58,185 nucleotides of DNA, filler included, from Bilabrum cf. latius (GCA_965178125.1; 2 parts of 2 records of this genome joined end to end with filler, not necessarily neighbours in it), one strand, 5' to 3'; positions 30,683 to 58,049 are shown, counted from the whole stretch's first letter. Numbers and translations: made by a program. The notes: generated by a model not told the origin, from the letters alone.

Positions 30683-30971
30683 AGCCCAAATTCGTCCTCT
30701 ACTGCGCGCGGATTCTCTGACCCCCCCCCCCCCCGCCCCGGGGATAGGAAAGGGGGACCAGAATTGGGGCCGCAGGAAGGTGACGAATCCGCGGCCCCGA
30801 TTTCAGGACCGCGGGCCTGGTTTTGAGACCGTTTCCGGCCCAGAGAAAATGGACACGAAAAAGTGAAAGCCCGACAGTAGACAGGAAGATCTTGCAGTTG
30901 GTGCAAAAGGAAGAGATCGCAGCCGCGGCCGGAGCGTCTGGGCCGCAGCGCTCGACTGGAAGGCCTTCGAC

Positions 30972-31792
30972 AATGTCGTGTACGGCTCCGGGCGGTCAGC
31001 GAAAGCGCAGGAGCGGGGCGCGTCGGAGTTACACTACTATTGTCAAGCTGCCAAAGTCGGTGCGCTGCTTTGCGCCACAAACTACCGAGCCGGACGCGAT
31101 TTCGTCGTCAATGGTAAGTTCGTGCACGCGTTGTTCGCACGCTTCAAATGGATCCGGACGTCGCGAGAAGGGAACTCGTGGCGTATCGGTGTCGGGACGC
31201 CGAGAGCTTAGTGCGCGCCATCGACTTCCACATACAGAATGCCGCTGAGAGGAGAGAGGTGTGCGCGCAAGCCGCGGTGCACGTAGTGACGAAGCTCAGC
31301 CCCTTTAAGGTGGTGCCCGAAGTCGAGAAGTGGCGCGAGAGCTATCGTCAGGAGTAGTTCGCGCACATGCGCTTCAAGTTCCTTGTCTTGGTGGGGAACT
31401 CCCAGTTTGGGAAGACAGTGTACGCGCGGAATCTCTTCGGGAGCGAAAGGACTCTTGTTGTGAACTGTCAGGGCAGTGTGGAACCTCCGCTCCGTGGCTT
31501 CGATCGAAGTCGGCATGTGGCCATTGTGTTCGACGAGGCAAATGCTCTGTGGGTCGTCAACAACAAACAGGTCTTTCAGGCTCTCCCTGCTCGGCCAGAG
31601 CAAGACGAACAGCCTCGCATACTCTGTGTGGCTCCACGGGCCCTGATCATCTGTACGAATTCGTGGGGCTCTGACGTGACGGAGTCGGTGGACCGCGAGT
31701 GGCTTGACAACAACTGTACGAAAGTGGAGGTGAAAGATCGGCTCTACTTCGACGAGGACTTGTTGTCTCTCACGGATGTGCAGCAGAGCTGA
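30972..31792 (+). pseudogene. rep: Geminivirus/CRESS-like Rep, C-terminal two-thirds (motif III + SF3 helicase), disrupted
   Basis: HYYCQAAKVG (catalytic Tyr motif). LVLVGNSQFGKTVYARNL (Walker A), AIVFDE (Walker B), LIICTN (motif C), WLDNNCTKVEVKDRLY (gemini-type C-terminus). Frameshift at ~31146 (frame intact in the 43-kb copy) and stop at 31355. Confidence 0.85.
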
Positions 31793-32199
31793 CGCCGGGC
31801 CGCTGAGGTTTTCAGTCCGGTTCACACGAGCGCCGGAGCCGCAGCGGCAGCCGCTTCGGTGCTCCTGAAGGTCTAATGTCCTCAGTGCGTTTCGTGTGCA
31901 AAAAGGATGTGGTCTCTACATGGGGGCATTCCGCAAGTTTCATGTGGTCCGTCGCGTTCGTCCGGGGGAGTGCTTGCCTAGTATTGGGAGCTTGCCTGAC
32001 ACACACACACACGTGGCACCCATCCTGATGGGTTGCAAGTGTGTGTGTGTCTCCGCAGTGCCGCGGTTGGGACCCGGCGGGTCGTTTGCTTTTACGTCGC
32101 CGCGTCGCGCGCCGACGAGACATTTCTTGGTCTCAGAAGCCCCTGCTTCCGGTAGTCGCGCGGTGTACGCTCGCGGGCCGAAGGTGGGTGCGTTGCTTG

Positions 32200-32892
32200 A
32201 TGGCCTACGTCGGTATCGCCGATGCACCGTATGTGGCCGTGGTTGCCGCGTCGACCTCCGAGCACGCCCCGGAGGGCGAGGTGGAGATGATGCTTGCGCC
32301 TCTTGCCGGAGATGTCGGTTTCAAGCGGGCTCGCGTGTTTCCTCCCGGTTCGCGACTTCTTCCTAAGTCGCCGGCCCATCCGGCGGTGCTCATAACAGTG
32401 CTCGGCAGTGAGGCACCTCAGGACCCACAGTGCGTCGTTTGGTCGGACTCCAAGGCTTTCGACCTCGCGGAGTTTGTATGCTCTTCCTGCGGCTGCAATC
32501 GTGTCATGGCGGACCTGAATCATCGTATGCGTGATCGTCTCGTGCGTCGTGTGCAGCGTGCGCTTTATGCCGATGATTCTCCGTGCGGCAGGGGTGCGAT
32601 TACTTGTCGTGCTTGTCGCGAGAAGGCGCAGGACGCGGCGCCGAAGACGTCGATCATGAACGCGGCGAACAAGAGGAAGATCTCGGGAACACTTCGCATG
32701 CAGGTGGATCTCATTGTAGAGACCGGGGAGCGGAAGGGGCAGCGTTGTACTGCGGAGAAAGTTCTGACATTGGGGACGATGATGCAGCACAGGGTTTTCG
32801 AGAGGGATCTTTACGATGAGGCATGGCGCGGGCTTGTTCGTGTGTCTGGACGCGAGGCTTTGAGCGATGACGAATCTTGGTCTCCGCGTTGA
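32200..32892 (+). CDS. Hypothetical protein with CxxC...CxxC zinc finger (start uncertain; frame open from 32041)
   Basis: Open frame containing FVCSSCGCNR ... ITCRAC. Confidence 0.5.
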   Translation: MAYVGIADAPYVAVVAASTSEHAPEGEVEMMLAPLAGDVGFKRARVFPPGSRLLPKSPAHPAVLITVLGSEAPQDPQCVVWSDSKAFDLAEFVCSSCGCNRVMADLNHRMRDRLVRRVQRALYADDSPCGRGAITCRACREKAQDAAPKTSIMNAANKRKISGTLRMQVDLIVETGERKGQRCTAEKVLTLGTMMQHRVFERDLYDEAWRGLVRVSGREALSDDESWSPR

Positions 32893-34055
32893 GCTTGCGT
32901 GACGGTTTTCCCTCTCAACCTGGCCTCTTGCGTGGCGCTGCTTCCGCGTGTGGCCTGAGCGTGCGACCTGAGCGTTCGGCTTGCTGTCGCGTGTGACCTG
33001 GAGCGAACGGGCTCGGCGACAGTATCCCGCGTATGTTGCTCCTGGGGTTCAAGAAAACTTGTACTTTTTGGGCTGTACGGTGGTCAGTGGTGCATGGTTC
33101 GTTCGCAGCCTCCGCGTTGTTGGAAAGCTATGGTGGAGCATGGTTCTTTTCGCAGCCTCCGCGTTGTGATCAAGCTACGGTGGAGCATGGTTCGTGAGCA
33201 TGGTTCTTTTCGCAGCCTCCGCGTTGTTGACACGTGAAAGCTACGCGAACGTGACCACACAGTAGGCCATACCCCAGGTGAAATCCGGACTCGGACATCC
33301 AGACGAAGCGCCATCATACACACTGTTGAACACACAAATGACTCTGAGCTCCACCGTAACGTAACTTTCCATCACCACCTGGGTTTATTTTCTCCGCGAT
33401 GGCAGCTTGGCGGTGACGCTGTGTCTTCGGGCATGAAGGGGCAAGTCTTCGGTTTTTTGGGCCCTGTTTCGGTCACCGAAAAGTCGTGTGATTTCTGGCG
33501 CGCAGGAGGAGTGACGCAAGGTATTTCTGAACCGTTTTCCGGACGCTTTCCGGGCCTCCCATGTGACCGCTTTTTGCGTACCGAAACACGTTCCGCGCGT
33601 GAGGAGCAGATGCGGATCTCCGCGGGGTCCTATTTGTGTCCTTTTTCGGGGGACGAAATCGGGCGCACTTGTCGTGCCGATTCGTGGTCGTCTCTGAGAC
33701 CGGCTGCGAGTCGGGAAAGGTGCCCGGGAGATGCTCGTGTCCTTGGCTTCGTATTTCTCCGCATATTCTTCAAACGCGGGCGCACGTCTCCTACCGATTC
33801 GTGGTCGGTTTCCGAGGCCGATCGCGAGTCGGGAAATGCGCCCGCGATGCGCTCTCGATCTCGGAAAGGGCAGGAGTCCGCTCTTGCATTCGGAATGGGC
33901 GGGGAGTAGAGCCGGTCCAGCATGTGTGGGCGTGAAGCCGGAGGAGTTGCTTTTCCTGGGAGCATGTGCGAGATTCCTTCTCCGCGGGTCCTCTTTCGGC
34001 TTCGGCAGCCAGCAGCGCACTCTGTGGGAACGGCATTCTCCGAGTCTCTTTGCCG

Positions 34056-35102
34056 ATGATGTGTGAGGAGAATCCGTCCGAGAGCATTGCTGTTTCCTTG
34101 GGAGACGACCGCAATCTTCGTGGGCGTCAAGGCGCCGGTAATATGGGAAACGAGGGCGGCATGTTGGCGCGCGAGGTCGACACCCCGGCGGAGCACGCCG
34201 GCGCGGCGGCAAGCGTCGATGTTGCGGCCGGCCCCCATATCGAGAGCGGCGGCGCGGAGGCGGCGTCCACGAGGATGCTCGGAGAGGAGAGCGACAAGGC
34301 AGCGCCGAAGGAGGACGCCGAAGACGACGGCGGCAAGAAGACGGAGGAGGAGGATGCTCGCGGCGCTGGACGTGCTGTGGTGCCCGGAGGTAATGACGAC
34401 GTATGGACAGACGCAGCCGCTTGGAAGGCGGGTGGCGGCGTGGCAGAGGCATTGTCATCGCAGCGTGTGAATCTTGCGCACGCTGCCGGGGCGGTCTCTG
34501 GCGCTGATAGCTGGGGTCCATGGGAGACCCCTGCGAAGTCGTCATGGGGGGAGACGTACGTGCCGCGGCAGGTCGCGCCGGAGCCGGCGGAGGAGGCGAC
34601 ATGGACTTGCAACGCGTGCCAGTGCTGCAAGCCCCGGTCGGCGTACTTCAAGAAGTGGAAGGACTGGATCCAACCAGTTTGCCGGGTGTGTTGCGACAAG
34701 TTCGACAACGCGACGCCGTGGTGGGTGTGGTGCAAGAACTGCAAAAACGAGTATCCGGCGTACCGATTTCCCCAGATCCGCCGGAAGAAGGAGAACCTGC
34801 GCTATTTCTTCCCTGAGGACTGGTGCGCGAAGTGCCTGGTTGCGCGTGGCTGGAGTCTCCATGATGTCCGTTCCTCTGCGGGTGAAGCGAAGCGTTGGGT
34901 GCCAAAAGCTTGCGCGAATACCGGTGACGGCGACAACGACGCTCGTGCTCCCGCACGCGACGAGCCTCCTGCAGGGGGCGCCGCCTCCTGCAGCAACGCC
35001 GTGCGTCAGAGTCCTTCGCGTGACGAGGCCTTGGATGACATCAAGCGGGCCATGGAGCTTCTCCGGAATGCGGAAAAGTTCATCTTCACGATGCCAGCGT
35101 GA
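34056..35102 (+). CDS. Hypothetical protein: acidic N-terminus plus two CxxC...CxxC zinc fingers
   Basis: TCNACQCCKPRSAYF...VCRVC and WCKNCKNEYPAYRF...WCAKC. Re-used almost identically at 45434-46006 and 46861-47343. Confidence 0.65.
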   Translation: MMCEENPSESIAVSLGDDRNLRGRQGAGNMGNEGGMLAREVDTPAEHAGAAASVDVAAGPHIESGGAEAASTRMLGEESDKAAPKEDAEDDGGKKTEEEDARGAGRAVVPGGNDDVWTDAAAWKAGGGVAEALSSQRVNLAHAAGAVSGADSWGPWETPAKSSWGETYVPRQVAPEPAEEATWTCNACQCCKPRSAYFKKWKDWIQPVCRVCCDKFDNATPWWVWCKNCKNEYPAYRFPQIRRKKENLRYFFPEDWCAKCLVARGWSLHDVRSSAGEAKRWVPKACANTGDGDNDARAPARDEPPAGGAASCSNAVRQSPSRDEALDDIKRAMELLRNAEKFIFTMPA

Positions 35103-35302
35103 CGCGGGAGCTTCCCGAATGGGTCCGTCGTGCTGTGAGGGCGCTCCGGAAGGAAGAGCGCGAGTGAGTCATCCTTGCGCCGAGGTGAGCGCGACGTCGG
35201 AGGAGCACGGTCGTTTGATTGGGAACGATATGGTCGGCAGCGTGTGAAAATCCGAGTTTCTCGTGCAGGATTGGGCAGCTCTCTAGATATCTTTCCCGGG
35301 AA

Positions 35303-36283
35303 GGGTGTGATGCAGTGGGAGCGCTTCCGCCTCACGTGGCAGACGTCCACACTTCCTGGTTCCCCGGCAGGCTGTTTGGCGAGACGGAGTGGCAAAGCAT
35401 CCGCCTGCTCATTCCTACTTTGTTACCTCGATTGTGAGCTCGGAGCTTGGGGCGGAGGATTCTGCGGGCAGCTCATGTGTGCCTAGAGTGTCATCCCGCG
35501 ACCCTCTGACTTCTGTCCGTGGCTTTACCTCTTCGCGCAGGAAGATTCCTCATGAGGCAAGCCCGGTCCGAACTCGCGTGGGATGCCGTGCGCTGGTGCG
35601 GCTTCCACTCATCCCCGGGGTGGGGAGCGCTGGGTAAAGGATCGTCTGTCCCTGCAAGTTTCGATTCGGCGAGGTGCGGCAGCATGACGCGGACCGAGGT
35701 GAAGTCCTTTGTCCGCGATAGGTCGCCGCGTCGCGCGGTGGCGACCCCACAGCGCCCAAATCCCATTCCAGAGAGGGGGTGTGATGCAGTGGGAGCCCTT
35801 CCGCCTCACGTGACAGACGTTCACACTTCCTGGTTCCCATAAGGTCTTCAGCACAGCGCATGCGAGGCAGGCTGTTTGGCGAGACGTAGTGGCATCGCCC
35901 CCGCCTGCTCATTCCTACTTTGTTACCTCGATTGTCAGCTTGGAGCTCGGGGGCGGCGGATTCAGCGGGCAGCTCATGTATGCCTGGAGTGTCATCCCGC
36001 GACCCTCTGACTTCTGTCCGTGGCTTTACCTCTTCGCGCAGGAAGATTCCTCATGAGGCAAGCCCGGTGCGAACTCCTGTGGGATGCCGTGCGCTGGTTC
36101 GGATTCCACTCATGCCCGATGTGGGGAGCGCTGGGGTAAAGGATCGTCTGTCCCTGCAAGTTTCGATTCGGCTCGAGTCAATGTGAGGAAGGAGAGGTGC
36201 GGCAGCATGACGCGGAACGAGGTGACGTCCTTTGTCCGCGATAGGTCGCCGCGTCGCGCGGTGGCGACCCCGCAGCGCCCAAA
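35303..36283 (+). repeat. ~475-bp tandem duplication (35303-35760 / 35777-36283)
   Basis: GGGTGTGATGCAGTGGGAGC...CAGCGCCCAAA repeated with small indels. Confidence 0.9.
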
Positions 36284-36731
36284 CCCCGCTCCGCCAGCGA
36301 GTCCTCACTCGACAGCGGTGTCGAACCTGCAGCAGCGCTTCGAGAACATGCAGCAGCGTGCGGAAAGCTTGAGCGCTCAGCTGGAGTACGCCCAAAGTGT
36401 GATCAGGCTGCTCTCAGGCCTGTTGCGCGAGGAGGCTCCTCGGTTCCATGCAGACTTTGATCCCGTGATTCGGCGTGCGATGTCTGGCGCAAGCGGCTCC
36501 GTTGCGGGTAGGTCTTTCCGTCTTGTGGACGGAGGCGTCATCCACGGACCTGACACAGCAGTCGCTGCTCCTCCGCGTCGTCTCATCGTTGAGGTGCGTA
36601 CGGACTGGGAGATGACCGAGACTGCCTCAACTGTGCTGGATTCCTCAGGATCAGACGACATGGGTTCCGAGGACTCGCCGCCGCCGACCGTCGTCCTCCC
36701 CAGCGGCGCGGCGGGCGCCGGCGGTGCCTAG
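36207..36731 (+). CDS. Small coiled-coil hypothetical protein (174 aa)
   Basis: RDRSPRR motif followed by heptad segment VSNLQQRFENMQQRAESLSAQLEYAQSVIRLL. Confidence 0.5.
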   Translation: MTRNEVTSFVRDRSPRRAVATPQRPNPAPPASPHSTAVSNLQQRFENMQQRAESLSAQLEYAQSVIRLLSGLLREEAPRFHADFDPVIRRAMSGASGSVAGRSFRLVDGGVIHGPDTAVAAPPRRLIVEVRTDWEMTETASTVLDSSGSDDMGSEDSPPPTVVLPSGAAGAGGA

Positions 36732-37302
36732 TCCTCGGCAGCTCCTGCATCGGAGCCTCCTGTCGAGATTCGATCGCGCAACGTCGTTTCTTACATTGCT
36801 TGCCGTCGCATGTGCGGGGCGGTGGTGGGTGTGCGTGTTCGCCGAAAGTTCCCGGCCTCGTCTTCCTCAGGAGAGCTCCTCGACCCGAAATTGGCAGCTC
36901 AGCGCTGCCGTGGCCGATACAGTACCCGTGCACGGCCAGTTGGCAGCTACGCGCTGCCGTTGCCAATGTCGTCCGCACGAGAGCAGATTGGCAGCTCAGC
37001 GCAGGCGAGAAACCGCGCTCGCAATGCTGCGAGGTGTATTCAATGCTGTGCACGTGTCTATCCCTCTCCCTGGTTTTGTCTCGCTTGCGCCAGTGTGACC
37101 GCAGCAGAGCGGGTGCTTCCCGCGCGTCTTCAGCTTTGAGCACTCCTCCAGCGACAGGAAGGCATTCGCTTGCTCTCGCTCCCCGCCTGCGTCCTATCCC
37201 TCCCGGGTATCTTCAGAGGCCACAGGCAGTGCGAAGCTTGGCAGCGGGTCCGTCCGCGTCGTTTCGGCTGTGAGCGATCTTCTGCCCGGTTCCTCACGCG
37301 TC

Positions 37303-38855
37303 ATGATGTCCTCCGCTTCGGTGCCGGATCAGCTCGCACGGATCAGTAAGGAGCTGAAGTGTCTCAGAGACGCGAGACAACGGGCGCGCAATGGGTTGCG
37401 CCATCCGTGGTTGCGCGCCATGGAGGCACAGGTCGCTGAGGTTATTCGTCATCACCCCGGAGGTGGCGAGGCAGCTCTTCGAACCTATGTCTCTCGTCAG
37501 TTGCAGAGTCGACAGGTTTCCACGCGGACGGCTTCGCAGGAGGAGTTTCAAAGGCAGGTCGATGAGGAGGTCGCGCTCACCATGAGGCGCCCAGCTGAGG
37601 CGTGGCAGCGAAATCCTCTTCGCTCATGTCATCGAGAGTCCGTGGCACGCGCGGAGACCTTTCTCGCCGAGGCTTCTGTCGTTGCTTGGATCGACCATGT
37701 GAACGAGCAGCGTGGGTGTGCTCCAACTGGGAACATGGTTTTCGCCATGCTTGCGATGGGCGTTCGCGCGGGGAAGGATTCGGCTCGACGGCAGTGGCTC
37801 CTGCGCTTCCGTCGTCGTTGGCGGCTTCGGCATGGCCGATTGAAGAAGCAGCCCCGGTAACACTCGATTACGTCAGACTCGCGTGTCGTGTCTTCTATCA
37901 GTGGATTGAATTCGCAGAAGCGCGAGTGCCCCGCAACCGCCGCCTCGTCTTTGTGAACTTCGATGAGTCCAGCGTGCCCTTTGCCTTTCCGGGAATGCGC
38001 GGGTACATCGCACCGAGGTCAGGAACGGAGCCCGCTTCGCTTGGTTCGCGCACGGAGCGCCTCGCCTCGAATAGCAGTCGAGGATCGTACACCTTTCTGG
38101 GTTTCATTAGCGACTGCCCGGAAATCCAGCGACGACTCCCGCGTATACTCATCGGGAAGCACACGCGGCTGAGCAAGCGCTTGATGCGTGGGGCGTCGAA
38201 CCAAATGGTGGACGGAATGGAAGTCTGGGCCCGAGAGAGCTCGTGGGTGACGCAGTCCCTCATGTTCGACATTCTGCGTCGGCTTTTCGCTTCTTGGATG
38301 GACATTCAGCATGAGATCTATCCAATAGTGATACTTGACTGCGCGCCCCAACACATTTCCACTGAGATTGTGAACTTCGCACACGGCCTTGGCATGGATC
38401 TCGTGTTTATTCCTGGTCGACTCACCTTCTTGCTTCAGCCGTTGGACGTTCTCGTCTTTCAGCTTCTTAAGCGCGACCTTCGGGAGACGTGGATGCAGGA
38501 GCGCTCGCGTCATGAAGCGGGTCATGTCGATGTCTCTTGCCATCTCAGGGTTGTCGCTGAGTGCACGAAGAGAGTGCTCTCGTCTGGCTCGTGGCAAGGC
38601 GCTTTCGATATGACAGGCATTACCAGCGGCAGGCGCCGCTTGCATTCGACCCTACGGCGCTTGTTTGAGTGTGACATGGAGGACATCTCCAGCGATGCTC
38701 CGTCCTGTCGACCAGCTCCGCTTCATCAGCAGTCCGCAGCAGCCTCTCCCGCACGATGCGCTCATCAACAGGGCCCCAGTCGCGTCCGGACACGGGGGTC
38801 GACGGAGGCGTCCACGGTGGTAACGCTCGCCGCGTGCCTCGTGGCCGCAGACTAA
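37303..38855 (+). pseudogene. pogo/Tigger-like (DDE_1) transposase with one frameshift near 37850
   Basis: RRQWLLRFRRRWRL (CENP-B HTH-like) in the first frame. VFVNFDESSV, SSWVTQSLM, IVILDCAPQH and FIPGRLTFLLQPLDVLVFQLLK (DD..D catalytic triad of the pogo family) in the second. Confidence 0.85.
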
Positions 38856-38859
38856 ACGG

Positions 38860-45002: not shown

Positions 45003-45018
45003 GATGATGTCGGGCATG

Positions 45019-47343: not shown

Positions 47344-50300
47344 TGCGGGAGCTTCCCGAATGGGTCCGTCGTGCTGTGAGGGCGCTCCGGAAGGAAAAGC
47401 GCGAGTGAGTCATCCTTGCGCCGGGGTGAGCGCGACGTCGGAGGAGCACTATTATTGCCAGGCGCCTGACCATCTGCACGACTTCGTGGGGCTCCATGAC
47501 GTGACGGCGAGCGAGAACATTGACTGGTTGCGTGGCTGGAGGATCTCGGGAACACACGGCGGGCGAGCCGTTTTTCAAAAGGAACAAGGGTCCTTCGGGA
47601 CGGCATTTCACTTACGGCGGGCGAGCCGTTTTCCGAATGGTGCGGGGGTCCTACTGATGCACACGGCGATCGTTGTTTCACTCACGGCGGGCGAGCCGTT
47701 TTCCGAATGGTGCGGAGTCCTCCAGATGACCACGGTGATGGGTGGCAGCATGTCATGAGCGCACCGTCGGAAGCTTCCCCTTTCGAGTGCTGCCTAAAAC
47801 TGAGAAGCGTGGAGATGCGAGCATCGCAGGGGGCACGAGGTAACAGCAGTGGGGTCCGTTCTCCGCTTCAGTTCCTGTCCCAAATCCGAATCCCATTTCG
47901 AGACCGAAAAAGGTGACCCGGAACACGACGGTACTCTCCGTCACTCCATCTGGCGGCGAAAATTGCCTCAGTTTCCGGTCCCCGATTCCGGGCCCAGGGA
48001 CCCCCGAAATTCCCGATTCCGCGCAGTGCCGAAAGCTCGACATAAACCACAAACACGACACACAACACAACACGATAGCGCCTCCCCACGTACACTCCCG
48101 CATCGTGAAGTCAACCACGCAACACCGTGCAGACTCATGCACCGAGACCGATGCATCTTACCGTCAGCGGCGCTGGTGGAAGCCGCGCTGCGAACAAGCT
48201 CCTCTGCACCAGTTACTCCGCCTTTTCAATCCTCGCGCACCTGAACGTGACTCCTGTGGATACGCAGTTCCTTCACCCAGCGCGGGTGCTTCGCAACGTC
48301 GTGCGTGCCCCATCTCGCCGTCGCGGGTGCTGAGACGCCTTCATGGTCATAAGGCGCCCTGAGCAGACTGCAGCGCGACTTCCAGTGACATTCCCGGCAA
48401 GAACACACTGCAGCTCACATGCAGCGAGCGGAAGGACCCAATCCCGCGCGCAGCCTTCCGCAGCGGGAGAATAGTATCCCCCCACGACCGCCGAAAAAAA
48501 AAAAGAAGGCTATGCTGAACTCGTTCCAGGGAAGGCTATGCAATGAGTATCTCTAGGCGCTTTCCGGAAGACCCACCCACTACACGCTGGTCGGCCCTCC
48601 CAAGTGGGAGTGAACCGCGGAGCCGCGGGCCCGTGAGCGCTGCTGCTACGATCATTTCTGCCCGTTTAACTCTCGCCCACTCTTGCCGTGACCAAAGACG
48701 CGCAGATCCTTATGACGCATGACACCTCGTCGAGGTGTCGGGACTGCCTCACACTCCCGTTAGGGAGACCCACAGCACTGCGACGACGAAATCGGTCACG
48801 AAGAGAGCACGAGGCCGCGCACCTGAGCATCACCAAAACCCCGGCAGACATAAACAACACCGTACCGTGAAATCCCCGCGACGAGGAGATCCCAAGGGGC
48901 TCCCACGGCGGCTCCTCTGCGGGAGAAGCTGTCGCAGACCTCGAGATGGGATGCACATGATTGCGAAGATTGCGGAACTCGTCCGAAGCCGGTCGCACGA
49001 GGGTCACAGCGAATGGAGGCATATCTATGAAATAGAGTCTGCGTGCAAAGCAGCATTCCAAACGATCCTCCGCATTCTTCCGAGCAAATCCTTGGGAGCA
49101 CACATCCTGCGGACGACATCTTTTTTCTGTCCACCCCAGCGTGCTCCCCGCACACACTTCTCGCGAATGATTGAGGATTCTGTGCGGCACATGTAATTAC
49201 AGGCTACCATGATTCGCGGGATGGCGTCCTATTGCTCGCACGTTCGTGCGCCCCCTTCCGAATGCGCTTATCACATCACCATGTTCGTCGGAAACCGTGA
49301 ACAGCGTAGGGGTCTTCCCTCCGACACCAAGCGTACACGACTGGCAGTAATAGCGCAGCGTAGATGTTTCGGGCGTCACCCACGACAAGTGTCGACGCCG
49401 GTTCGTCACGATCACTACGTGTGCACTTCATTCACCGCCCTCCAGCCGCTAGACTTCTTTTGGAACGCGACATCCTACGACGCGCTATGACACGTAGCCG
49501 TAAACCGCAGACGGCCTCGCGTTCACTGCTTGCAGCGCAAGAGCGTGCACGAAAACCGCCCGCGTGGCACACCTTCACAGGCGCGGAAGACAAAAAAATC
49601 CTTCTCAGCTTGTATTCGGGTTCGAAAGCCAAATTCCACTTCGGGGTCGAGAAGGGTGACCCGGGAAATCACCGTACGCTCTGTGAATCCATTTCCCAGG
49701 GAAAGTCCCCGAGTTCCCGCTACCCGGTCCCGGGCCCAGCGACCCAGGAAAGTTCCCGTCCCCCCGCATGCGGAAACTCCCACGAAGCACGCCCACCTCA
49801 CGCTTCACACGCAAAAGTCCAGGAGTCATCCATTCCGGACCCAGCAGTTCACCCCCCGTGACGATTGGGAAAGGCTCTTGCACACACCTTCTCGTCCGAT
49901 CAGTCTATGGAGCACACGCCTCTCTTCGTTGCCTTTTCCGGCCAAAAATGCAGGGAGCTCGAAGGGGAAGTAACAAACGCGGGAGACCGCTTTCGAAACG
50001 CAGGTGCTCAGGGAAAAACAACCAGAGCGTCCATGATCCTCGGCAGAGCCGTCCAGGAGGGACGGGCACGGACGGGCATCGCAGATCTTGCAGCGCCACC
50101 ATTCGCCGGGATGGACGACCGGACGAGGGCGACCGCAAGTACGTAGCGTGCGACGTCCGCCAGTGGCCATGTTGCGCTCATTCGCTTTCGCGGCACGACT
50201 TCCAGGGCCGGCCTTACTCACTCCTCGGAGTCCGCGTGTGGATTCTCCCCTGCACACGATCTGCCGCTCTAGGTGCTACACAAAGATCCCACTCGGATGA

Positions 50301-50833
50301 CCCCCTCTGTGCATTCTGCAAGATCTTACGCGCGTCCATTCAATGCGCGAAGCATGCACCGCAGCAGTCTGAGTCCGGTGACCACCTTCAATAGCGTGGG
50401 ACAAATTCCGTCCGCGATGTGCATTCGGGCATGCTCCCCTTTCCGAGTCTCTGTGACCCGTAGTGCGTCCGCGGCCAACGACTCAGGACCTCCACGATGG
50501 TAAGCACGAGTTGCATTCCTTGCAAGAAGCGCGCGGGGAGAAAACGATGCTGAGACATCGAGGCGCTTGGAGAGTCTGCACACGACATGCTTCGAGAGGC
50601 CATGCAGACATGCGGAACGAGAACCGAGGTTCCGCATCGTTCCTGCTGTCGAGCGCTCAATTGGGGCATCGGATCAGGATGCAGCTCGCGAAGAGAGGAC
50701 GCGGGTGGTCCCCCATCCAAAAATCCGCCGCGCTCAAGGCTCGTGTTCCCGGATCCCGCATTCGCGAGTTTCGGGAGCAGAAGTGTAAGATCGCCGCTGG
50801 ACACACAGCGCATGCCATTCCCCGCCCCTGGAG

Positions 50834-53389
50834 ATGTCGGGCTTCCACGCGCAATTCGGACACCATCGCCAGGACCTCGGGAAGATGACATGCCTGCTGA
50901 TCTGCAGGGAGGAGTCCCGCTTCGAGGAGTGGCAACAGCAAAAAGGGGCGCAGGAACTCCAAGCGCACATGCGAGCGGTCCTTCGGCTCCCCAATCCGGT
51001 GTTTCCGCAGACCGACAGAGACCCAGATGGACGCAACATCGTCAAAGACCAAGCCCTCTTGGATATCTTCTCCGGCAAGATAACGGACTGCATCAAATAC
51101 AATCCGGCCACTGTTGGGGCGATCCAATCCCATCGAAACGCATGGCTGTGGGCGGAGAACCACACGCCGACGGAATGGCTCATGGTTGTCGAGGATGATA
51201 TCCAACCTCGCGAAGCATGCGTGGATCGGCTACTCGTAGTTCTTCACGCCATCGCGAAAAACCCCAAGGTGACGCAGATGGCCATGTTAGCGGGGTCAGA
51301 AGCACCGAGAATGGTCGGCCTCCAACGCGGAAACTCCACTTCCGTCTACAACTGCGAGCGCCTCCTTGACGTGCGGACCTATCCAGCGCACTGGGTGGAC
51401 AGCACATTTGTGGTCCCCTTCCACGTCGGCATGGGCCTAAAGTGGTACCTCATCAGCCCGAAGGGGAGGAAGGCGCTCCTGAAGATGCCCATCCCGAACC
51501 GAAGCTTCGAACGCTGCGTCTGGCGCCGCATCTTCGACACGTTCCAAGGGCCGGTATGGAGGTGGGAAGATTGCCTCCGCATGACATCTGTGCTCGCAGC
51601 CAGTCCGGTCCTGGCATCGACTCCCGAGAGCATGGACGCGGAGTGGGGGGGGCTCGGGACGGCGAAGTACGGATGCAGGGCACAGTCTGAAACCGTACGT
51701 AATGATCGACCCGAATGGCGACTGGACTCTTGGCGAGCGATTAAACACATTGTCCGTCGTGATGTCCGTGTGCGCGGCCCTGAATTGGGGGATTGTCCTC
51801 GTCTGGGAAAAAACAGAGCGCGTGCCCATCTCCTACGAAGACTTGTGCGGTGTTCACGAGCACGCCGACGAAACCAACACGTTCATCCACCTCCTCCAGG
51901 ACAAACGAGGCGGGTCGTATTCGTACTTCCTGAGGCACGGAGACATCCGCATCCACGTGGTGCAGCCGATGATGTGCATCCCCACCCTCGACAGAATGCT
52001 CGACATGGTGACCATGGAGAGTCCCAAGATGAAAACCCTGCCTCCCTTGAAATGGCAGGCCGCTCGATGGATCCAAGTCAAGCAGAAGTGGATCGACAAA
52101 CTCCACACGGAGATGCCGGGGGCCGAGCTGCCCTCATGGCTGGAGTGGCGACCCTCACTCCACGCGCTCGTCCTCTGCGACGACAGGGACTTGGCGGCGT
52201 ATTCCCTCGAGGGGAGATGCCAAAAGGAGCAGAAGGAGTGGCTGACCGGCGGGAGGGACAACAAAATCCAGAACTACATCCCGGAGGCAAAGAAGGCCCT
52301 GCAGAACGAGTTGGAAGACATCCTCGAGGCAGCTCGCGCCTCGTCGTGATCCACATGACAACCAAACCGCTGGGACAGCTCTGGGTGGAAATGATGAACC
52401 ACCTCACGAAGAAGTTCGGCAAGCGCATCATAACGCCTACGTTCCTCCTCCCGACAATGATCCCCAATCGGAGGTACGACGAGAAGAAGCCGAGTGAGGA
52501 TTGGATTACTTGGGGACAATCCTTGGCGACAAGCATGGGCCTCCTCACGCTCATACCTCCGATGCAGGTGCACTATCCCGTCATGAGCTGGACCGTGGCC
52601 TGGAACCACTTCATGTTTCGAGGCAGGACTGCCACGGACGGCGTGATCCCAGACGCCACCCGAGCTCTCTACGCTCCGCACAAGGGCAACAAGAAGCAGC
52701 TCCTCAAGAACGGCCCGCTGTGCCAGACGAGGCACGCCGTGCTGGACTCGCCCGCACTGCAGGACATTGCGAACAACCGCTCAAGGGCCAAGGACAAGAC
52801 CTATAACCTCCTGAGCTATTCCAAATGGTTTGCCGAGGAGGCCATGTGGCACATGATCAAGTACGCCGAAAGCACGCAGAGCATCGTCGACCCGTTCGTG
52901 AGCCGCCAGTGCCAAAAGGTCTTCGAGCACATCCCCCCGGATGATATCGGCCATGCGGACGCCCGGCTCCGGTACAACCTTCAGGATGCCAACGAGCGAG
53001 GTTACCGCTTCAACGCGCAGCATCTCTACACCGCGGTGCAGGACATCAAAACGGTGAACATCACATACTCGAAGTGGCTCACCGAGCAGACACAAAGTCA
53101 TTCCGAGTGGACCTGGGGCAAGACGTTCATCAAGCTTGTGATCAACCAGTGGCGGCAGCAGCAGGGCAGTGAGCCGTATGACGTGGACGAGGATGACTAC
53201 GTGAGCCTTCCGCGGACCTTCCACGGGAATTCCGTGAAGCTCGCGAGGAGCGCAAGCCGTAAGGACACGAGACCTTGTTCCACATCGCCCTCATCCTATT
53301 CCAGGTCGCCGTCCACCCAGAGGACTGAAGCACAGCCTCCGAAGAGAGCGCGCCTGACCCCGGCACCCGACGTAAAGCAAGAGCCCTGA
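50834..53389 (+). pseudogene. Glycosyltransferase family 25-like domain fused to a possible fucosyltransferase-like domain; two compensating frameshifts (~51700, ~52330); true start may lie further 5'
   Basis: VGAIQSHRNAW...WLMVVEDDI and KWYLISPKGRKALLK match GT25 motifs (GC..SH...W, ILEDD, Y.IS..GA.KLL). Alternate frame 51702-52349 reads WTLGERLNTLSVVMSVCAALNWGIVLVW (GLGNRL-like) and is clearly the protein-like frame there. Confidence 0.7.
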
Positions 53390-53938: not shown

Positions 53939-54380
53939 TGTGAGACCGCGAGGATCTCGACGTCCAAACTTCCGAGCTCCAAGATCGCAACTCACGTGGA
54001 ATGCACGATGTGGAAACCTCTTCCTGCCCTTCACGGAAATGCCCAGCACTCAACTTCAAGACCCAAGTATCAACGCGTCGACACAATGAAGTCTGCTGCT
54101 CGGAAACGCGATCTTTCCGCTGCTGCTCGCCGCTGGGTTGGACTCAAGGGCCCTCGAGTGCAGACGGCAACGACGCGGTCGCGTATCACGCGCAGCCAAA
54201 AAGAAAACATGCACTCGGCCCCTAGCTCACAGCACAACAATGCCGGCCATGGATCGAATTCAATGAACCGTCCCGACTTGCCTTGACCGTTGCAATCACC
54301 ACGCTTCAGAACCATGCTTGTCGAATGAACTGGAACCGTCCATGCCCTAAACTGGTCACGACACCCGAATTGTCTTCACA
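53939..54380 (-). repeat. 3' LTR (442 bp)
   Basis: TG...CA termini; preceded on the minus strand by PPT TGAGGGGGCG (54381-54390). Confidence 0.95.
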
Positions 54381-54490
54381 CGCCCCCTCAGCCGAAGCGA
54401 ATATTCGCAAGGATGCCCTAAGGGTGTCGGATCGTTCGCTCGACCTCTGGCACTGGGAAGCACGAGCAACAAAAAACTAGGCCCGCGGCG

Positions 54491-56032
54491 TCACTCGTCC
54501 TTCGTCGTACTTCTTCTCCTCCAGTCCGACATCCTCTTTCTCGCCCGCTCCACACAATACGAGCAAGACCTGAGCTCGCGAATGTCACCCTTCAACGCCT
54601 GGCAACCGGGCATGTGATAGCAACTTCCCAACGGAGTCACGTACAAGTGCCCTACGCCACAATAGTTCGCGCCTGTGTCGTAGTTCACGACGGATGTCGT
54701 CTCCTGGAAGTAGTCGCGCTCACTCTTCAACTCGTCGAACTCGGAGTTCTCCTTCTTCTTCACGCTCCTCCTCCTACCGTCACCATGCATGCACCAATAT
54801 GCCAGAACACAACCCAATATCACGAACAACACCATCACCGCCAACAATAGCAGCAAGACCAGGCCTCGCAAGAAGCCTATCTCCTTCGCATAGCCATCCA
54901 TGGACTTATGCCCGACGCCATACAACACTGCCATGCCGTACGGATAAATCCTGTCACCGCCCGTGTTGTAGTCCGAAGTGTCCCTGGCATTCATGTCGTT
55001 CATCGTCTGCGCGCCAACCTTGCTCACCAGCATCAGCAATGCCATAGCGATCGACTTGAGCTCCGCGCCCGTGCTCGACGTCACGCTCGGCAACCCGCGC
55101 TTCTTCACGATCGTGCTGATGCGCGCCTCGTCGGTCTCGCAGACCAACCCCATTTTCCCGATGAGGTACCAATGCTGTGCCTTGTCCAAGGCCTTCGTCA
55201 ACTGGTCCGCTTCGTTCTCCCGGGTGTTCACGTGCTTCACGTCAAAAACCTTGTCCTGGTACAATTCCTGCAGCGAAAACGTCCGAATCTCCACGTGTTT
55301 CAACCTGCTGCCCGAGCCGCGTCGTTTGATGACCGCCTCGGCCGCTGTACTGTCCGTCCGCAATTCGCCCTTGCCTTTCCCCTTCAACGCACCGACAATG
55401 GTCATGTCCGCATCACCGCCCTCGTCATATGTCCATGTCCACGCACCTGTGCTCTGACAGTAAGACTCGATGCGAGTGAAAAGCTGGAGCATCGTCATGT
55501 CGACCGTCGCCGTCATCTGCACTTGCGTCCGCAAGGGATCCGGCAAAGCCCTTATCACCGTCGCTGTCTTCACTGCGTCACCCAAGACACCTGCAATCTT
55601 CTCGTAGTTCGACACGTCCGACTTCCACTTCTGAACGGACTCGAGAAGTGCCGACCCATCGTGGCCATGGAACGTCGGGTTCAACAACCTCGACAACATG
55701 CCCAAGGCCTTCGCCTTGTCGCTCGGGCCGAACTTCTTCGCAAGCCTTCTCCAAGACTCAAACCCGTTCGTGTTGTCCTCGCGTGTGATCTCCGTGAACG
55801 CCTTCCCCACGACGGAGATAGAAATCAAATAGTGCAGCTGTCTGCTCCTCGCTTGCTGGTCCTCGGGCACCGTCACGATGGCCGTGTCCGTCGCTGCCGA
55901 CTGGTCCATGATGCCAATGGCCGCCTCGTCAAGCAATGCCACGTAGCTCTTGAACTTGGCCGCCCACTCCTTCCAGGGCGTGCCCGGAGTCCACTGCGGC
56001 GCCCGAAGGGAGTACTTCAATGAGGTCTCCAT
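54491..56032 (-). CDS. Copia Gag fused in frame to the RNase H C-terminus plus a transmembrane/zinc-binding extension (513 aa)
   Basis: Gag: WKEWAAKFKSY...NGFESWRRL. RNase H tail: LRTDSTAA...RLKHVEIR...VNTRENEADQLTKAL. Hydrophobic LVLLLLLAVMVLFVILGCVLAYW. C-terminal YVTPLGSCYHMPGC...SCSYC. Confidence 0.9.
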   Translation of the reverse strand: METSLKYSLRAPQWTPGTPWKEWAAKFKSYVALLDEAAIGIMDQSAATDTAIVTVPEDQQARSRQLHYLISISVVGKAFTEITREDNTNGFESWRRLAKKFGPSDKAKALGMLSRLLNPTFHGHDGSALLESVQKWKSDVSNYEKIAGVLGDAVKTATVIRALPDPLRTQVQMTATVDMTMLQLFTRIESYCQSTGAWTWTYDEGGDADMTIVGALKGKGKGELRTDSTAAEAVIKRRGSGSRLKHVEIRTFSLQELYQDKVFDVKHVNTRENEADQLTKALDKAQHWYLIGKMGLVCETDEARISTIVKKRGLPSVTSSTGAELKSIAMALLMLVSKVGAQTMNDMNARDTSDYNTGGDRIYPYGMAVLYGVGHKSMDGYAKEIGFLRGLVLLLLLAVMVLFVILGCVLAYWCMHGDGRRRSVKKKENSEFDELKSERDYFQETTSVVNYDTGANYCGVGHLYVTPLGSCYHMPGCQALKGDIRELRSCSYCVERARKRMSDWRRRSTTKDE

Positions 56033-56114
56033 GACGCTCTCGTCAAAGTCGCTGTAGCTGTCGCTGTCAACGCCGATGTCGTGGTACTCGGAGACGGACG
56101 GGCTAGACGTCGTT

Positions 56115-56128
56115 GTGCTCCGCTACCA
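56115..56128 (-). promoter_or_regulatory. Primer-binding site TGGTAGCGGAGCAC (tRNA-iMet-like)
   Basis: Immediately follows the 5' LTR on the minus strand and starts with TGG. The tRNA identity is inferred. Confidence 0.75.
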
Positions 56129-56569
56129 TGTGAGACCGCGAGGATCTCGATGTCCAAACTTCCGAGCTCCAAGATCGCAACTCACGTGGAATGCACGATG
56201 TGGAAACCTCTTCCTGCCCTTCACGGAAATGCCCAGCACTCAACTTCAAGACCCAAGTATCAACGCGTCGACACAATGAAGTCTGCTGCTCGGAAACGCG
56301 ATCTTTCCGCTGCTGCTCGCCGCTGGGTTGGACTCAAGGGCCCTCGAGTGCAGACGGCAACGACGCGGTCGCGTATCACGCGCAGCCAAAAAGAAAACAT
56401 GCACTCGGCCCTAGCTCACAGCACAACAATGCCGGCCATGGATCGAATTCAATGAACCGTCCCGACTTGCCTTGACCGTTGCAATCACCACGCTTCAGAA
56501 CCATGCTTGTCGAATGAACTGGAACCGTCCATGCCCTAAACTGGTCACGACACCCGAATTGTCTTCACA
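56129..56569 (-). repeat. 5' LTR (441 bp)
   Basis: By eye it differs from the other LTR only at one substitution and one homopolymer indel. Confidence 0.95.
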
Positions 56570-56900
56570 AAATTGGGACCCCTTTTTCGCAAATTTCGCA
56601 GCATCCAGACGAACCAGAAAGACTTTCCCAGGCGCCGCCTCGAAGCTCACCTTCTCGCATGCAACCATGACGCACCCCCACCTCCTCATGCAGACGCGTC
56701 TGAGAGACCCCGCAGTGGAACTTCTCCCATTCTGCGCAGGAAGCACTTCAGTCTACAAGGACCCGCGCACTTCTTACCGCACCAGCTCCATGTGAAAGCG
56801 CTTCTCGCTGAGTTTTTTTTGGGGCCCAGGAATACAGCAACTGCCAGAAGCTTCGCACAAAGAAGCAGCCCGCTCAGGAAGCAAACTCACTGCACACCCC

Positions 56901-57371
56901 ATGGCGAGCGACGCAGAACCGGAGGACGCAATGCGGCTCGACTCCCCCAAAGATGCGGATGCAGCGGCGTCACCCGAAGCGACGGAGGCAGGATCACACA
57001 GATCAGATCATGCGCAGCAGTTCTTCGGGGAGCCCTGCCCGAAAGGCGGACTCACGGAAGCGCTGGAGAAGACCGCCAAGACGGACGAACCAAGCGACAC
57101 ACCCTTGTTCGTCGACAAGTGGACGGCAGCGATCACACGCCTTACCGAGGAGCGTAAGGCTCTCAAGCTCGAGCAGCGGGCTAAAACGAAGGCCATCCGC
57201 AAAACCATCCGGCAGAAAAGGCGCACCATGAAGAACGCCAAGAAACTCACAGACGACGAGCTCGCCCAAATCGTGCTAGACAGGAAGATCTTGCAGTTGG
57301 TGCAAAAGGAAGAGATCGCAGCACGCAGCTCCGCCAACTCCTCAACGAGTAAGGCGAACTCGATGACGTGA
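56901..57371 (+). CDS. Small protein with acidic N-terminus and basic coiled-coil C-terminus (156 aa)
   Basis: ITRLTEERKALKLEQRAKTKAIRKTIRQKRRTMKNAKKLTDDELAQIV. Its 3' segment (DRKILQLVQKEEIA) is duplicated at ~30878-30923, just upstream of Rep. Confidence 0.7.
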   Translation: MASDAEPEDAMRLDSPKDADAAASPEATEAGSHRSDHAQQFFGEPCPKGGLTEALEKTAKTDEPSDTPLFVDKWTAAITRLTEERKALKLEQRAKTKAIRKTIRQKRRTMKNAKKLTDDELAQIVLDRKILQLVQKEEIAARSSANSSTSKANSMT

Positions 57372-57798
57372 GAAGCGCTTCCCGTGTTCACAGAACCGAG
57401 GATTACAGATAGACCCGCGTCACAGAAGCCAGCGCCAGAAGGCAGAGCGTCAAGTACAGCGCAATTTTGACGGTCACAGGTAGCCCGAGCAGCACAGAGC
57501 AGCGGACGCGGCCGCGCAGCGGAGTCGCGCACTCGGAGAGCATACGCGGGAAGTGCTGGGAGAAATCACTCAGTCCGCCAGAACCGTCATCGAGAGCACG
57601 GGAGGGGCAGACTCGACATGCGCAACCTTGAAAAACGGGAGGGGCACGGAAAGGAAGACAGACTTGGCATTAATCCTCGATTACCCCCGCTCCCCCGTAG
57701 AATCAGAGCGAGCAGATGTGCTAGGAAGGTCCGGGGGGGGGGGCAGTCGCAGAAGAGTGCACGGGAAAACAACAGGAAAGGAGACCCCCCAAACCCAC

Positions 57799-58049
57799 GT
57801 AGTGCGATCCTGGGGGGTACCCTCTAAGGTACTAAGAATCCTTCCCCCGAAAATCGCACTACCTCGGTCCCTGGCGTCGGGGAAAGCGGAAAAAAGCGGA
57901 GCACTACCGTGAAAAAATCCCGCATTTTACAGGGAAATCGGAGCACTACGTGTCAAAAACTGGGGGTTTTTGAGCTTTTTTTTTCTTCCAGAAAAACGGC
58001 ATTTTTTTATGTAAAAACCGCGCGAAACGAGCACTACCGAGCACTACCT
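57799..58049. promoter_or_regulatory. Stem-loop (GTAGTGCGAT/ATCGCACTAC) followed by iterated GCACTAC repeats; candidate origin or element end
   Basis: Stem 57799-57808 / 57853-57862 with inner G6/C5 pairing. Further GAGCACTAC copies near 57899, 57941, 58029 and 58039. Function is inferred only. Confidence 0.45.

Follow-up and report, generated by a model that had tools for sequence, protein, structure and literature searches.

Fragments of a CRESS-type Rep beside a pogo-type transposase in the Bilabrum cf. latius assembly point to a eukaryotic mobile-element family

Introduction

Whether a viral-type replication gene and a transposase gene lying next to each other in a rearranged piece of eukaryotic DNA belong to one and the same mobile element is the question raised by a stretch of 58,185 nucleotides (nt) from the assembly of Bilabrum cf. 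latius (GCA_965178125.1; parts of two records joined end to end with filler). The complete stretch is called the window in the following, and all coordinates are counted from its first letter. A flagged region of about 27 kb in it had been proposed, from the sequence alone, to be an undescribed virus-like element encoding a replication initiator protein (Rep) of the type found in DNA viruses that are single-stranded, circular and Rep-encoding (CRESS DNA viruses), a pogo-like transposase and several further genes. From the comparisons presented here, the part from 30972 to about 47450 is read with modest confidence as copies of a eukaryotic mobile-element family that have decayed, have been rearranged and probably stand partly in tandem, and the flanking 47.5-58 kb may belong to the same family as well. 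The conserved core of these elements would be, in a judgement leaning slightly toward acceptance, a linked pair of a CRESS-type Rep (HUH endonuclease with one Tyr and fused superfamily 3, SF3, helicase) and a pogo-type DDE_1 transposase. The copy in the window is not intact and looks dead or dying.

Elements uniting a replication enzyme with an integrase, such as Polintons and Teratorn, are central to ideas on the interconversion of viruses and transposons. A stable partnership of a CRESS-type Rep with a cellular pogo transposase would add a new bridge between the two worlds.

Results

Rep family and its linkage to a pogo-type transposase

Among the six-frame open reading frames (ORFs) of at least 60 amino acids (aa), a single one bears a Walker A motif (31358-31789). 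A word-indexed protein search with this 144-aa helicase ORF as query gave no match within the length band searched. When the translation of 31118-31789, with its lone TAG codon set to X, was used as HMMER query for scanning 1.84 billion representatives, a large family was obtained, comprising 974 cluster representatives at E <= 1e-3 and 482 at E <= 1e-10 (best E 5e-54). Most of these relatives are 470-735 aa long, with the match falling at their C-terminal end, and at source they are named 'hypothetical protein' or not at all. None of the Pfam Rep models (Viral_Rep, Gemini_AL1, etc.) was reached by 41 family members or by the pieces from the window, with two members grazing PF23343 at E 0.011. 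Likewise, the family profile produced only chance P-loop matches to PDB sequences, and no relative of the family was found in IMG/VR. In the 41-member alignment, E160, H173, H175, Y223, K228, G340, G345, K346, D386, E387 and N433 are invariant. The corresponding motifs in a 9-member alignment read LTW/YxGxWG, VHFH, HYYxQxPKxG, GxSxxGKT, (I/V)xxDE and N, with L350 and T351 of motif I (LTW/LTY) being invariant in all nine. The family employs a single catalytic tyrosine, as Y223 is invariant in the 41 members together with K228 and the adjacent Tyr varies.

An AlphaFold model of the family member P0012 (predicted local distance difference test score, pLDDT, 87.5) was compared with PDB structures by Foldseek, with full-length Rep68 of adeno-associated virus 2 (AAV2; E 1e-8) and Vientovirus Rep (E 7e-7) as the first matches, followed by papillomavirus E1 and B19 NS1. 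With VIA-align, residues 89-239 of P0012 superimpose on the endonuclease domain of Vientovirus Rep with Z 8.5 and a root-mean-square deviation of 3.2 (106/113 aligned), and the C-terminal domain superimposes on the ATPase of the Rep of porcine circovirus 2 with Z 9.8 (121/142 residues) and on SV40 large T antigen with Z 10.3. The AAA+ proteins Lon and ClpB reach 10.8 on the same domain, on par with the SF3 matches, hence Z alone cannot separate SF3 from AAA+ proteins in general. In a search of predicted viral structures, the top 50 matches included 25 named ones, comprising 22 Reps from CRESS-type or uncultured circular DNA viruses and three parvovirus NS1 proteins (best E 9e-16). Because of the invariant residues and these fold matches, the family is assigned to the CRESS-type Reps and not to the RepHel proteins of Helitrons, so that the original prediction of an HUH endonuclease with one Tyr and an SF3 helicase holds for the family by deep HMMER search, residues and fold.

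The second component is the only long plus-strand ORF of the flagged 27 kb belonging to a curated family (37626-38855; Pfam DDE_1, E 1e-11, 45.1 bits against a cut-off of 22). Its catalytic part is open over 418 codons (37599-38852), and the three catalytic Asp residues D298, D419 and D455 (numbering of the related locus L015) are invariant in six aligned sequences including that of the window, the second and third being spaced by 36 residues. The L015 transposase scores like that of the window on Pfam DDE_1, and PF03184 is present in 21 of 24 database relatives. The postulated pogo-like transposase is thus corroborated by the Pfam match and the three conserved Asp. A putative DNA-binding N-terminal part (37099-37857) lies in a frame different from that of the catalytic part. 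This N-terminal frame gave no BLAST match to the relatives, with a short W..(K/R)FRRRW-like motif appearing by eye to be shared, and a Pfam match to a helix-turn-helix domain was not obtained even with the full-length L015 transposase. At one conserved place, the DDE gene is broken by a stretch of variable length in five lineages, either by an in-frame stop (L013 and L023) or by a frame change (L001, L006 and the window), while it runs continuously through that place in L015. Judged from the sequences, this break looks like a nuclear intron. The single in-frame stop is located at the same place in the sister lineages L013 (7611-7613) and L023 (7412-7414), which share 81% nucleotide identity, and could reflect a retained intron, read-through or decay.

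For studying the linkage of both genes, 34 metagenome contigs retrieved with a Rep-only peptide motif from a 9-sequence alignment were used as related loci, and all window ORFs of 70 aa or more were compared with them by tblastn. Besides the Rep pieces, only the transposase ORF found matches, namely in 12 loci at E values from 7e-13 to 2e-25. In 12 loci, the Rep match is preceded by 1.7 kb or more of sequence, and 11 of these encode a DDE_1 homologue upstream of and on the same strand as Rep. In L001 a DDE gene follows 3.6 kb downstream of Rep, corresponding to the gene order of the window. Maximum-likelihood trees of Rep and DDE proteins, with nine rows each, agree on every supported group, with (window, L001) at 99/99 and 98/98, (L015,(L013,L023)) and (L010,L012) occurring in both. 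With differences of up to about 75% between the Reps encoded at linked loci, the linkage seen in the metagenomes does not stem from a single clonal element family. Taken together, the linked loci and the congruent trees support the proposal that Rep and pogo belong to one element, terminal inverted repeats (TIRs) or a TA pair bracketing the DDE gene alone were not found, and the co-occurrence check envisaged for it, run on metagenome contigs instead of the genome of the window, favors one element, too. On the basis of sequence comparison, a common element with Rep and DDE_1 genes can be regarded as well supported.

Rep remnants and patchwork structure of the window

The stretch occurs in 16 sequencing runs, which come from 12 studies and bear many organism labels, and this would fit a microbe living with many hosts. 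Contigs from four other public runs (X1, X3, X5 and X8) were aligned to positions 30878-50877. By tblastn with five full-length family members, 30960-31777 corresponds to residues 451-726 of P0009, covering motif III and the SF3 domain, with frame changes near 31100-31150, at about 31580 and at about 31640, two frame changes falling between Walker B and motif C (Table 1). The part with motif III (LHYYCQAAK, within 30972-31208) shows 51% identity to P0009 over 59 aa by BLASTP. At position 31356, A is replaced by G at full depth in all four other runs, therefore these runs have, in agreement with the family, a Trp codon in place of the stop codon of the window. No sequence encoding motif I or any other N-terminal part before family residues 401-413 or so was detected by tblastn anywhere in the window. 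Directly upstream of 30972, all four runs differ from the window and continue the Rep sequence, being identical to window positions 45203-45216. Hence, fuller Rep copies exist in these samples and the copy in the window is cut at 30971/30972. Directly upstream of this breakpoint, a 13-nt tandem array extends from 30388 to 30734. With respect to the window itself, the predicted Rep is accordingly present as pieces with HUH, Tyr and SF3 motifs but not as an intact gene, being fragmentary, frameshifted and deprived of its N-terminal part.

Self-BLAST of the window revealed 19 pairs of repeated segments of at least 80 nt. The second copy of the 348-aa ORF region (45253-47449) is composed, in this order, of 33875-34632, 39040-39890 and 34621-35208 at 97-99.5% identity. 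Older pieces, with 84-88% identity, of Rep, of a glycosyltransferase (GT)-like gene and of a 156-aa ORF are scattered over 41-45 kb, and at the palindrome found there the GT-like protein P0001 matches both strands by tblastn (41220-41318 and 41356-41493). In the other runs, 94 alternative joints were counted on 30878-50877. The number of contigs at least 90% alike on these 20 kb amounted to 29,098 in one run and to 120-184 in the other three. From the many joints and the contig numbers it follows that the sequences are repeated and variable in nature. The original observation of fragments joined to one another at many junctions is therefore borne out both by the self-BLAST pairs and by the joints of the other runs.

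Of particular relevance is the HUH-bearing Rep fragment at 45056-45251, the last 35 nt of which repeat 30972-31006 with 34/35 identical positions. A junction 45216->30972 that keeps Rep continuous is implied in all four runs, and the joint 30971->45056 is found in two of them (X3 and X5). Together with the continuity of the window, these junctions hint at a cycle of about 14,245 bp starting and ending in Rep. Such a 14.2-kb unit would fit a partial tandem duplication as well as the integration of a concatemer or circle. For the rolling-circle replicon that had been postulated, this permutation or tandem signature is the sole hint; the replicon itself goes beyond the data.

Only the catalytic domain of the transposase still looks whole, with Rep truncated and frameshifted and the GT-like gene frameshifted. 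In DNA as GC-rich as that of the window (50-70%), long open frames can hide frameshifted pseudogenes, for which the 851- and 520-codon ORFs are examples. These two longest ORFs are artefacts, the 520-codon ORF (45781-47343) of a rearrangement junction and the 851-codon ORF (50834-53389) of two frameshifts.

Table 1. Positions of the genes, remnants and repeats discussed in the text. Coordinates refer to the window unless a related locus is named.
Feature	Position	Strand	Remarks
Rep remnant	30972-31789	+	Motif III LHYYCQAAK, linker, SF3 with Walker A GNSQFGKT, Walker B IVFDE and motif C CTN
In-frame TAG in Rep	31355-31357	+	Reads TGG (Trp) in four other runs; W in P0009
CxxC-rich ORF, 230 aa	32200-32892	+	No Pfam family; no homologue in the 34 loci
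CxxC-rich ORF, 348 aa	34056-35102	+	Four CxxC pairs by eye; gene region 33875-35208 duplicated at 45253-47449
Tandem duplication	35303-36287	+	35303-35764 versus 35777-36287, 85% identity
215-aa ORF (predicted earlier as coiled-coil protein)	36084-36731	+	No Pfam family
pogo-type DDE_1 transposase gene	37099-38855	+	Pfam DDE_1; DDD triad; homologues beside Rep in 12 loci
Segment downstream of transposase, with another CxxC ORF	39040-39890	+	Copied at 46013-46864 (99.5% identity) within second zinc-finger gene copy
Palindrome	41245-41429		91-nt arms, 96% complementary, 3-nt loop; inverted duplication of GT-like gene fragment
Second Rep fragment	42999-43217	+	Family residues 451-524; 86% identical to 30972-31182
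Rep linker fragment	44498-44626	+	129 nt; 88% identical to 31193-31319
Three tandem 72-nt copies of GT-like gene fragment	44751-45035	+	Parent 52841-52972
Rep fragment with HUH motif	45056-45251	+	NLVHFHV; tblastn 45091-45240 equals residues 413-462
Second copy of 348-aa zinc-finger gene	45253-47449	+	Interrupted by 852-nt copy of 39040-39890; read-through gives chimeric 520-aa ORF
GT-like gene	50885-53386	+	836-859-aa family, N-terminal GT-A (possibly GT25-like) domain; compensating frameshifts near 51660-51671 and 52328-52343
LTR retroelement, nested and with internal deletion	53939-56569	-	442-nt LTRs, 99.5% identical, TG...CA; 5-bp target duplication AAATT; not part of the element
156-aa ORF	56901-57371	+	No Pfam family; 3'-end fragment copied at 42323-42472, 84% identity
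X759 gene	L023:1458-3737; L013:2101-4395; L015:8273-10648 (-)		Adjoins the DDE+Rep pair

Architecture of related loci

Intact genes are found in the related loci L001, L006, L015 and L023, the Rep ORFs spanning 560-702 aa and the transposase 634 aa. The loci range in length from 7 to more than 17 kb. One set of relatives has accessory proteins of 759-791 aa (X759), about 170-215 aa (X215) and about 117 aa (X117), with the gene order X759-X215-X117-DDE-Rep being common to L023, L013 and L012, and X215-X117-DDE-Rep occurring in L006. The 17,426-nt contig L006 consists of perfectly complementary arms of 5656 nt around a DDE+Rep core of 6114 nt, and each arm holds an inner palindrome with 295-nt arms near its outer end. 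This contig could represent a linear molecule with long terminal repeats or an assembly path through a repeat. In the L015 group, inverted repeats with 80-84% complementarity over 285-329 nt lie on both sides of DDE+Rep, extend outward and carry X759 and X215. L023 (1-18232) is periodic in direct orientation, its first 1360 nt or so recurring at 16966-18219 with 86-95% identity, and the resulting unit measures about 16.96 kb and holds ten co-oriented ORFs. In L013, the last gene of the unit (164-172 aa, Cys-rich) is located directly upstream of the first one, as a tandem or circular order predicts. None of the 34 contigs could be circularized by terminal overlap.

When nine ORFs of L023 and L015 were compared with Pfam, no family was found for the accessory ORFs, and no capsid, packaging ATPase or protease family was among the results. 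From language-model features (Protein Atlas, score 0.96), X759 appears GT2-like, which is a lead only. By profile-profile comparison, the 759-791-aa proteins and the GT-like family of the window are unrelated (probability 0.1%), hence the two lineages may each carry a different glycosyltransferase. Low-complexity arrays are also present in these loci, namely 8-9-nt repeat units filling the Rep-DDE spacer of L001 (3114-4901), a 15-nt His-rich coding array after Rep in L023 (11331-11888) and 12-nt units within the variable part of the DDE gene in L012 (3884-4105).

Further genes and neighboring repeats of the window

At permissive thresholds, 20 window ORFs did not match any Rep, glycosyltransferase, zinc-finger or capsid family of Pfam. 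The 851-codon ORF has eight relatives (767-859 aa) sharing 39-91% identity over the N-terminal 320 residues. Its residues from about 280 to 520 are unrelated to this family, the true frame being the overlapping ORF 51702-52349 according to the alignment, with which tblastn agrees. Pfam Glyco_transf_25 is reached by two of the nine members weakly and below the cut-off (best E 0.0053) and not at all by the window copy, and the family profile found nothing among PDB sequences and no relative in IMG/VR. The model of the 836-aa member P0001 is of low confidence (mean pLDDT 51.6). Still, its residues 1-220 match GT-A enzymes in a consistent manner, i.e., mimivirus R655 (Z 12.0, 171 aligned), beta-1,4-galactosyltransferase (Z 11.1) and the GT25-containing LH3/ColGalT1 complex (Z 8.8), and beyond residue 260 or so, in a part left unassigned, weak fucosyltransferase-like matches follow (Z 6.6-7.4). 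Within the family, E120 and D122 (EDD) are invariant, in agreement with the acidic metal-binding motif of GT-A enzymes. Due to the consistent matches despite the poor model, predicting a GT-A fold, possibly GT25-like, for this gene is considered fair. From the GT25 fusion gene predicted earlier, the family and the GT-A fold match can thus be retained, but no member exceeds the Pfam GT25 cut-off and the window copy suffers from two frameshifts.

Concerning the predicted zinc-finger genes, CxxC-rich ORFs do exist but are without family match. Neither these nor the GT-like, 215-aa and 156-aa ORFs have a homologue in any of the 34 related loci by tblastn, and regarding them, including the zinc-finger and coiled-coil genes, as parts of the element would have the local patchwork as its sole basis, so that this claim is not sustained. 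The GT-A-fold gene and the CxxC-rich genes may be cargo specific to the lineage of the window.

The region is interrupted by a retroelement with long terminal repeats (LTRs) starting with TGTGAG and ending with TTCACA, and AAATT is found on both of its sides. Its 513-aa minus-strand ORF has no Pfam match and unites a gag-like start with a polymerase tail looking Copia-like by eye, as well as with a membrane segment and a Cys/His tail. The arrangement of co-oriented, intronless genes seen originally is accordingly not valid for 53939-56569. The long plus-strand ORFs of the flagged 27 kb correspond to those noted originally. Outside the flagged region, direct repeats of about 700 nt (500-1197 versus 3766-4464; 90% identical, 3266 nt apart) surround a 219-aa ORF (2987-3646) in the manner of an LTR-type pair. 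ORF 4636-5430 shows a weak AP2-domain match below the cut-off (E 0.0027), and ORF 19207-19905 matches Pfam RNase H (E 3.4e-8) and may be a retroelement remnant, with all frames being open at 18-22 kb (65-70% GC). Two intact ORFs of 655 aa (12856-14823) and 499 aa (10116-11615) have no Pfam family, the Cys/His-rich stretches of the former recalling by eye large DNA-transposon proteins. Further repeats are a 10-11-nt array with inverted symmetry at 22070-22388 and a palindrome at 8750-9012, whose 131-nt arms are built of 42-nt units.

Discussion

How the linked pair might act can be sketched from the predicted enzymes. The DDE enzyme would cut and paste the double-stranded element at its ends, and Rep would nick an internal origin and, by means of its helicase, copy the element, be it excised or resident, in a rolling-circle or rolling-hairpin mode. 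By this, a cut-and-paste transposon would become a self-amplifying one according to the Polinton logic of joining a replicase and an integrase, albeit with a different replicase and a different integrase, and further genes would be lineage-specific cargo. Going beyond the linked core, and quite tentatively, the window could be the fossil of undescribed, widespread eukaryotic 'self-replicating transposons' of about 7-17 kb or more, in which Rep and DDE would have been passed on together from a time preceding the divergence of lineages that today show only 25-40% protein identity. In such elements, the DDE enzyme would excise and integrate, Rep would amplify them as circles or, in the case of kilobase inverted arms, as hairpin-ended linear molecules, and the 14.2-kb unit would be the scar of an integrated concatemer or circle. 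As a missing link, elements of this kind would connect the DDE transposons of cells with viruses encoding Rep.

Several results weigh against a mobile-element family of this kind. No circle was observed, and a shared stem-loop origin near Rep was not found in six loci and the window (stem of at least 8, loop of 5-14), the search returning five unrelated hairpins. Ends of the element were not found in any locus, and no TIR or TA duplication was found to bracket the window DDE gene or the segment 35138-41244. Near the gene, the sole inverted pair that is perfect, 15 nt long at 36062 and 39887, lacks TA flanks and lies within a tandem duplicate. The inverted repeats of the relatives reach the contig ends and are absent from L012, L013, L023 and L001. 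Linkage is not universal either, as L008, with 1.9 kb upstream of the Rep match, lacks DDE even by hidden Markov model (HMM) search, this space probably being mostly the N-terminal part of Rep itself, and no DDE gene is present in the 4.3 kb downstream of Rep in L028. Moreover, the loci are not independent, since L015, L018, L021 and L022 are 93-98% and L023 and L025 99% identical, therefore the number of diverged lineages reduces to about seven plus the window. As the window and L001 form long branches in both trees, with L016 on a long branch as well, the pairing of the window with L001 could partly be due to long-branch attraction. The HMMs of X759, X215, X117 and X164 did not give anything better than E 0.04 in the six frames of the window and L001, and the GT-like family numbers 8 relatives, compared with 974 for Rep. 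Finally, no RNA run is among the 24 runs listed, which is uninformative on expression either way.

An endogenous true virus appears unlikely, though it deserves the closest consideration among the alternatives. Rep and DDE would then form the module by which a 14-17-kb virus replicates and integrates, comparable to polinton-like viruses with HUH and rve proteins, and its capsid and packaging genes would be among the unassigned ORFs. The relatives do hold 3-8 more co-oriented ORFs without assigned function in units of about 17 kb, L006 resembles a linear genome with long terminal inverted repeats, and the Rep fold is nearest to viral Reps. Large DNA viruses commonly encode glycosyltransferases, and the GT-like domain from the window finds its best fold match in a mimivirus protein. 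In addition, some Mriyavirus-like groups pair HUH endonucleases with rve integrases, according to 10.64898/2026.06.19.733378. However, families of capsid proteins, packaging ATPases or proteases were recognized neither in the nine ORFs of L023 and L015 nor in the 20 window ORFs, the transposase belongs to the DDE_1 type of cellular transposons and not to rve, and the DDE-gene break in five lineages looks like a nuclear intron. The accessory genes are, furthermore, not common to different lineages. With no capsid found and with IMG/VR containing neither the Rep nor the GT-like family, the virus-like nature put forward in the original prediction has no basis so far.

Distinctly less probable is a pogo-type transposon in which a viral Rep was captured long ago as cargo without any role in movement, being neutral or, e.g., interfering with related viruses. 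DDE transposons do carry captured genes, and the failure to find an origin-like hairpin as well as the contrast in the window between the best-preserved DDE catalytic domain and the broken Rep would agree with this scenario. On the other hand, intact Rep ORFs with invariant catalytic residues persist across lineages of only 25-40% identity, showing that nicking and ATPase activity have been under selection in the element over long times, and the gene trees agree.

For a chance neighborhood, i.e., a dead endogenous CRESS Rep and an unrelated pogo copy in a repeat graveyard whose patchwork arose by ordinary local duplication and deletion, one could invoke the repeat-rich window with its nested LTR element, tandem arrays and RNase H ORF, and the fact that the 97-99.5% identical patchwork pieces have their parents within the same 27 kb, which fits local segmental duplication. 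This scenario is strongly disfavored and very improbable in view of the same DDE family residing beside Rep on the same strand in 11 of 12 informative loci and of congruent trees in which the window pairs with L001 both times. Equally hard to credit is an immobile, multi-copy tandem family of domesticated Rep and DDE host genes, with such gene families being common in some protists, as co-orientation, tandem-like periodicity (about 17 kb in L023, about 14.2 kb in the window) and the intron-like break would allow for it, but the copies of the window are truncated, frameshifted and shuffled, many alternative junctions exist in other samples, flanks and cargo change between lineages and inverted-repeat arms occur in some of them.

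If the partnership of Rep and DDE transposase is a stable one, it would explain how Rep genes spread and multiply in protist genomes without a capsid. A 'dark' protein family of large size (974 representatives, no Pfam model) would thereby receive a name, and a testable system for replicative DDE transposition would become available. In the literature search, an element with an SF3-bearing Rep and a pogo-type transposase was not found described, and supplements and subscription journals lay outside this search, so that a prior description is possible. The pairing of Rep(SF3) and pogo-type transposase without a recognized capsid appears to be new. The general idea of combining a replicase with a DDE integrase is already known, given the HUH and rve combinations in polinton-like elements and the replicase-integrase modules discussed in 10.64898/2026.10.13.758929.

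Comparison with known systems

Parvoviral NS1 and AAV Rep68 resemble the Rep family in that AAV2 Rep68 tops the PDB matches (E 1e-8), and the long inverted arms of L006 with their inner palindrome recall rolling-hairpin replicons. In contrast to parvoviruses, these arms are 5.6 kb long and gene-bearing, no parvovirus-like capsid was found, and NS1 ranks at 40-43 in the viral library, i.e., below the CRESS Reps.

With Helitrons and Replitrons, the elements share the presence of an HUH endonuclease in a eukaryotic genomic repeat, and differ by the fused SF3 helicase and the DDE partner gene. The RepHel protein of Helitrons combines two Tyr residues with a Pif1-type SF1 helicase, and a DDE transposase is not part of the element. 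Assignment to Helitrons was rejected because of the one invariant Tyr, the SF3/AAA+ folds and the lack of Pif1 among the matches listed. Replitrons possess a one-Tyr protein with a weak link to CRESS Reps, and, in PMC10288648, this protein is described as Y1 Rep with C-terminal zinc-finger-like domains and as lacking a helicase and a DDE partner. Based on this definition, Replitrons were rejected as well, since the family studied here has a fused P-loop helicase.

Closer are the Reps encoded by CRESS-DNA viruses (Cressdnaviricota with Genomoviridae, Geminiviridae, Circoviridae, etc., and their endogenous copies), with which the family shares HUH with one Tyr, linker and SF3 as well as the full-length fold. 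Motif III of CRESS Reps is YxxK, whereas it reads HYYxQxPKxG here. By sequence, moreover, the family does not match Pfam Rep models or PDB chains, its members have a long variable N-terminal extension (470-735 aa in total), and the gene resides beside a DDE transposase in loci of 7-17 kb or longer, in which a capsid gene, a stem-loop origin or a circular contig was not found.

As for the transposase, likeness to pogo/Tigger elements (Tc1-mariner) consists in the DDE_1 domain, the DDD triad, the 36 residues between second and third Asp and an N-terminal region ending, by eye, with the W..(K/R)FRRRW-like motif. Unlike in pogo/Tigger, a second large enzyme gene, Rep, is present, the short TIR and TA duplication were not found, and kilobase gene-bearing inverted arms flank the pair in some relatives.

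In terms of overall logic, finally, Polintons/Mavericks, transpovirons and HUH polinton-like viruses (Zora, VC218) are comparable by having a replication gene and an integrase of the DDE superfamily in one integrating element of 10-40 kb, and some polinton-like groups feature HUH endonucleases, rve integrases and capsid modules, as stated in 10.64898/2026.06.19.733378. Their integrase, however, is of the rve type, their replicase usually is a family B DNA polymerase with protein priming (pPolB), PolA or an archaeo-eukaryotic primase (AEP), and double-jelly-roll capsid and packaging genes are present, whereas in the loci studied here, with no morphogenesis gene recognized by Pfam, it is a CRESS-type Rep that stands beside a pogo-type DDE_1 transposase.

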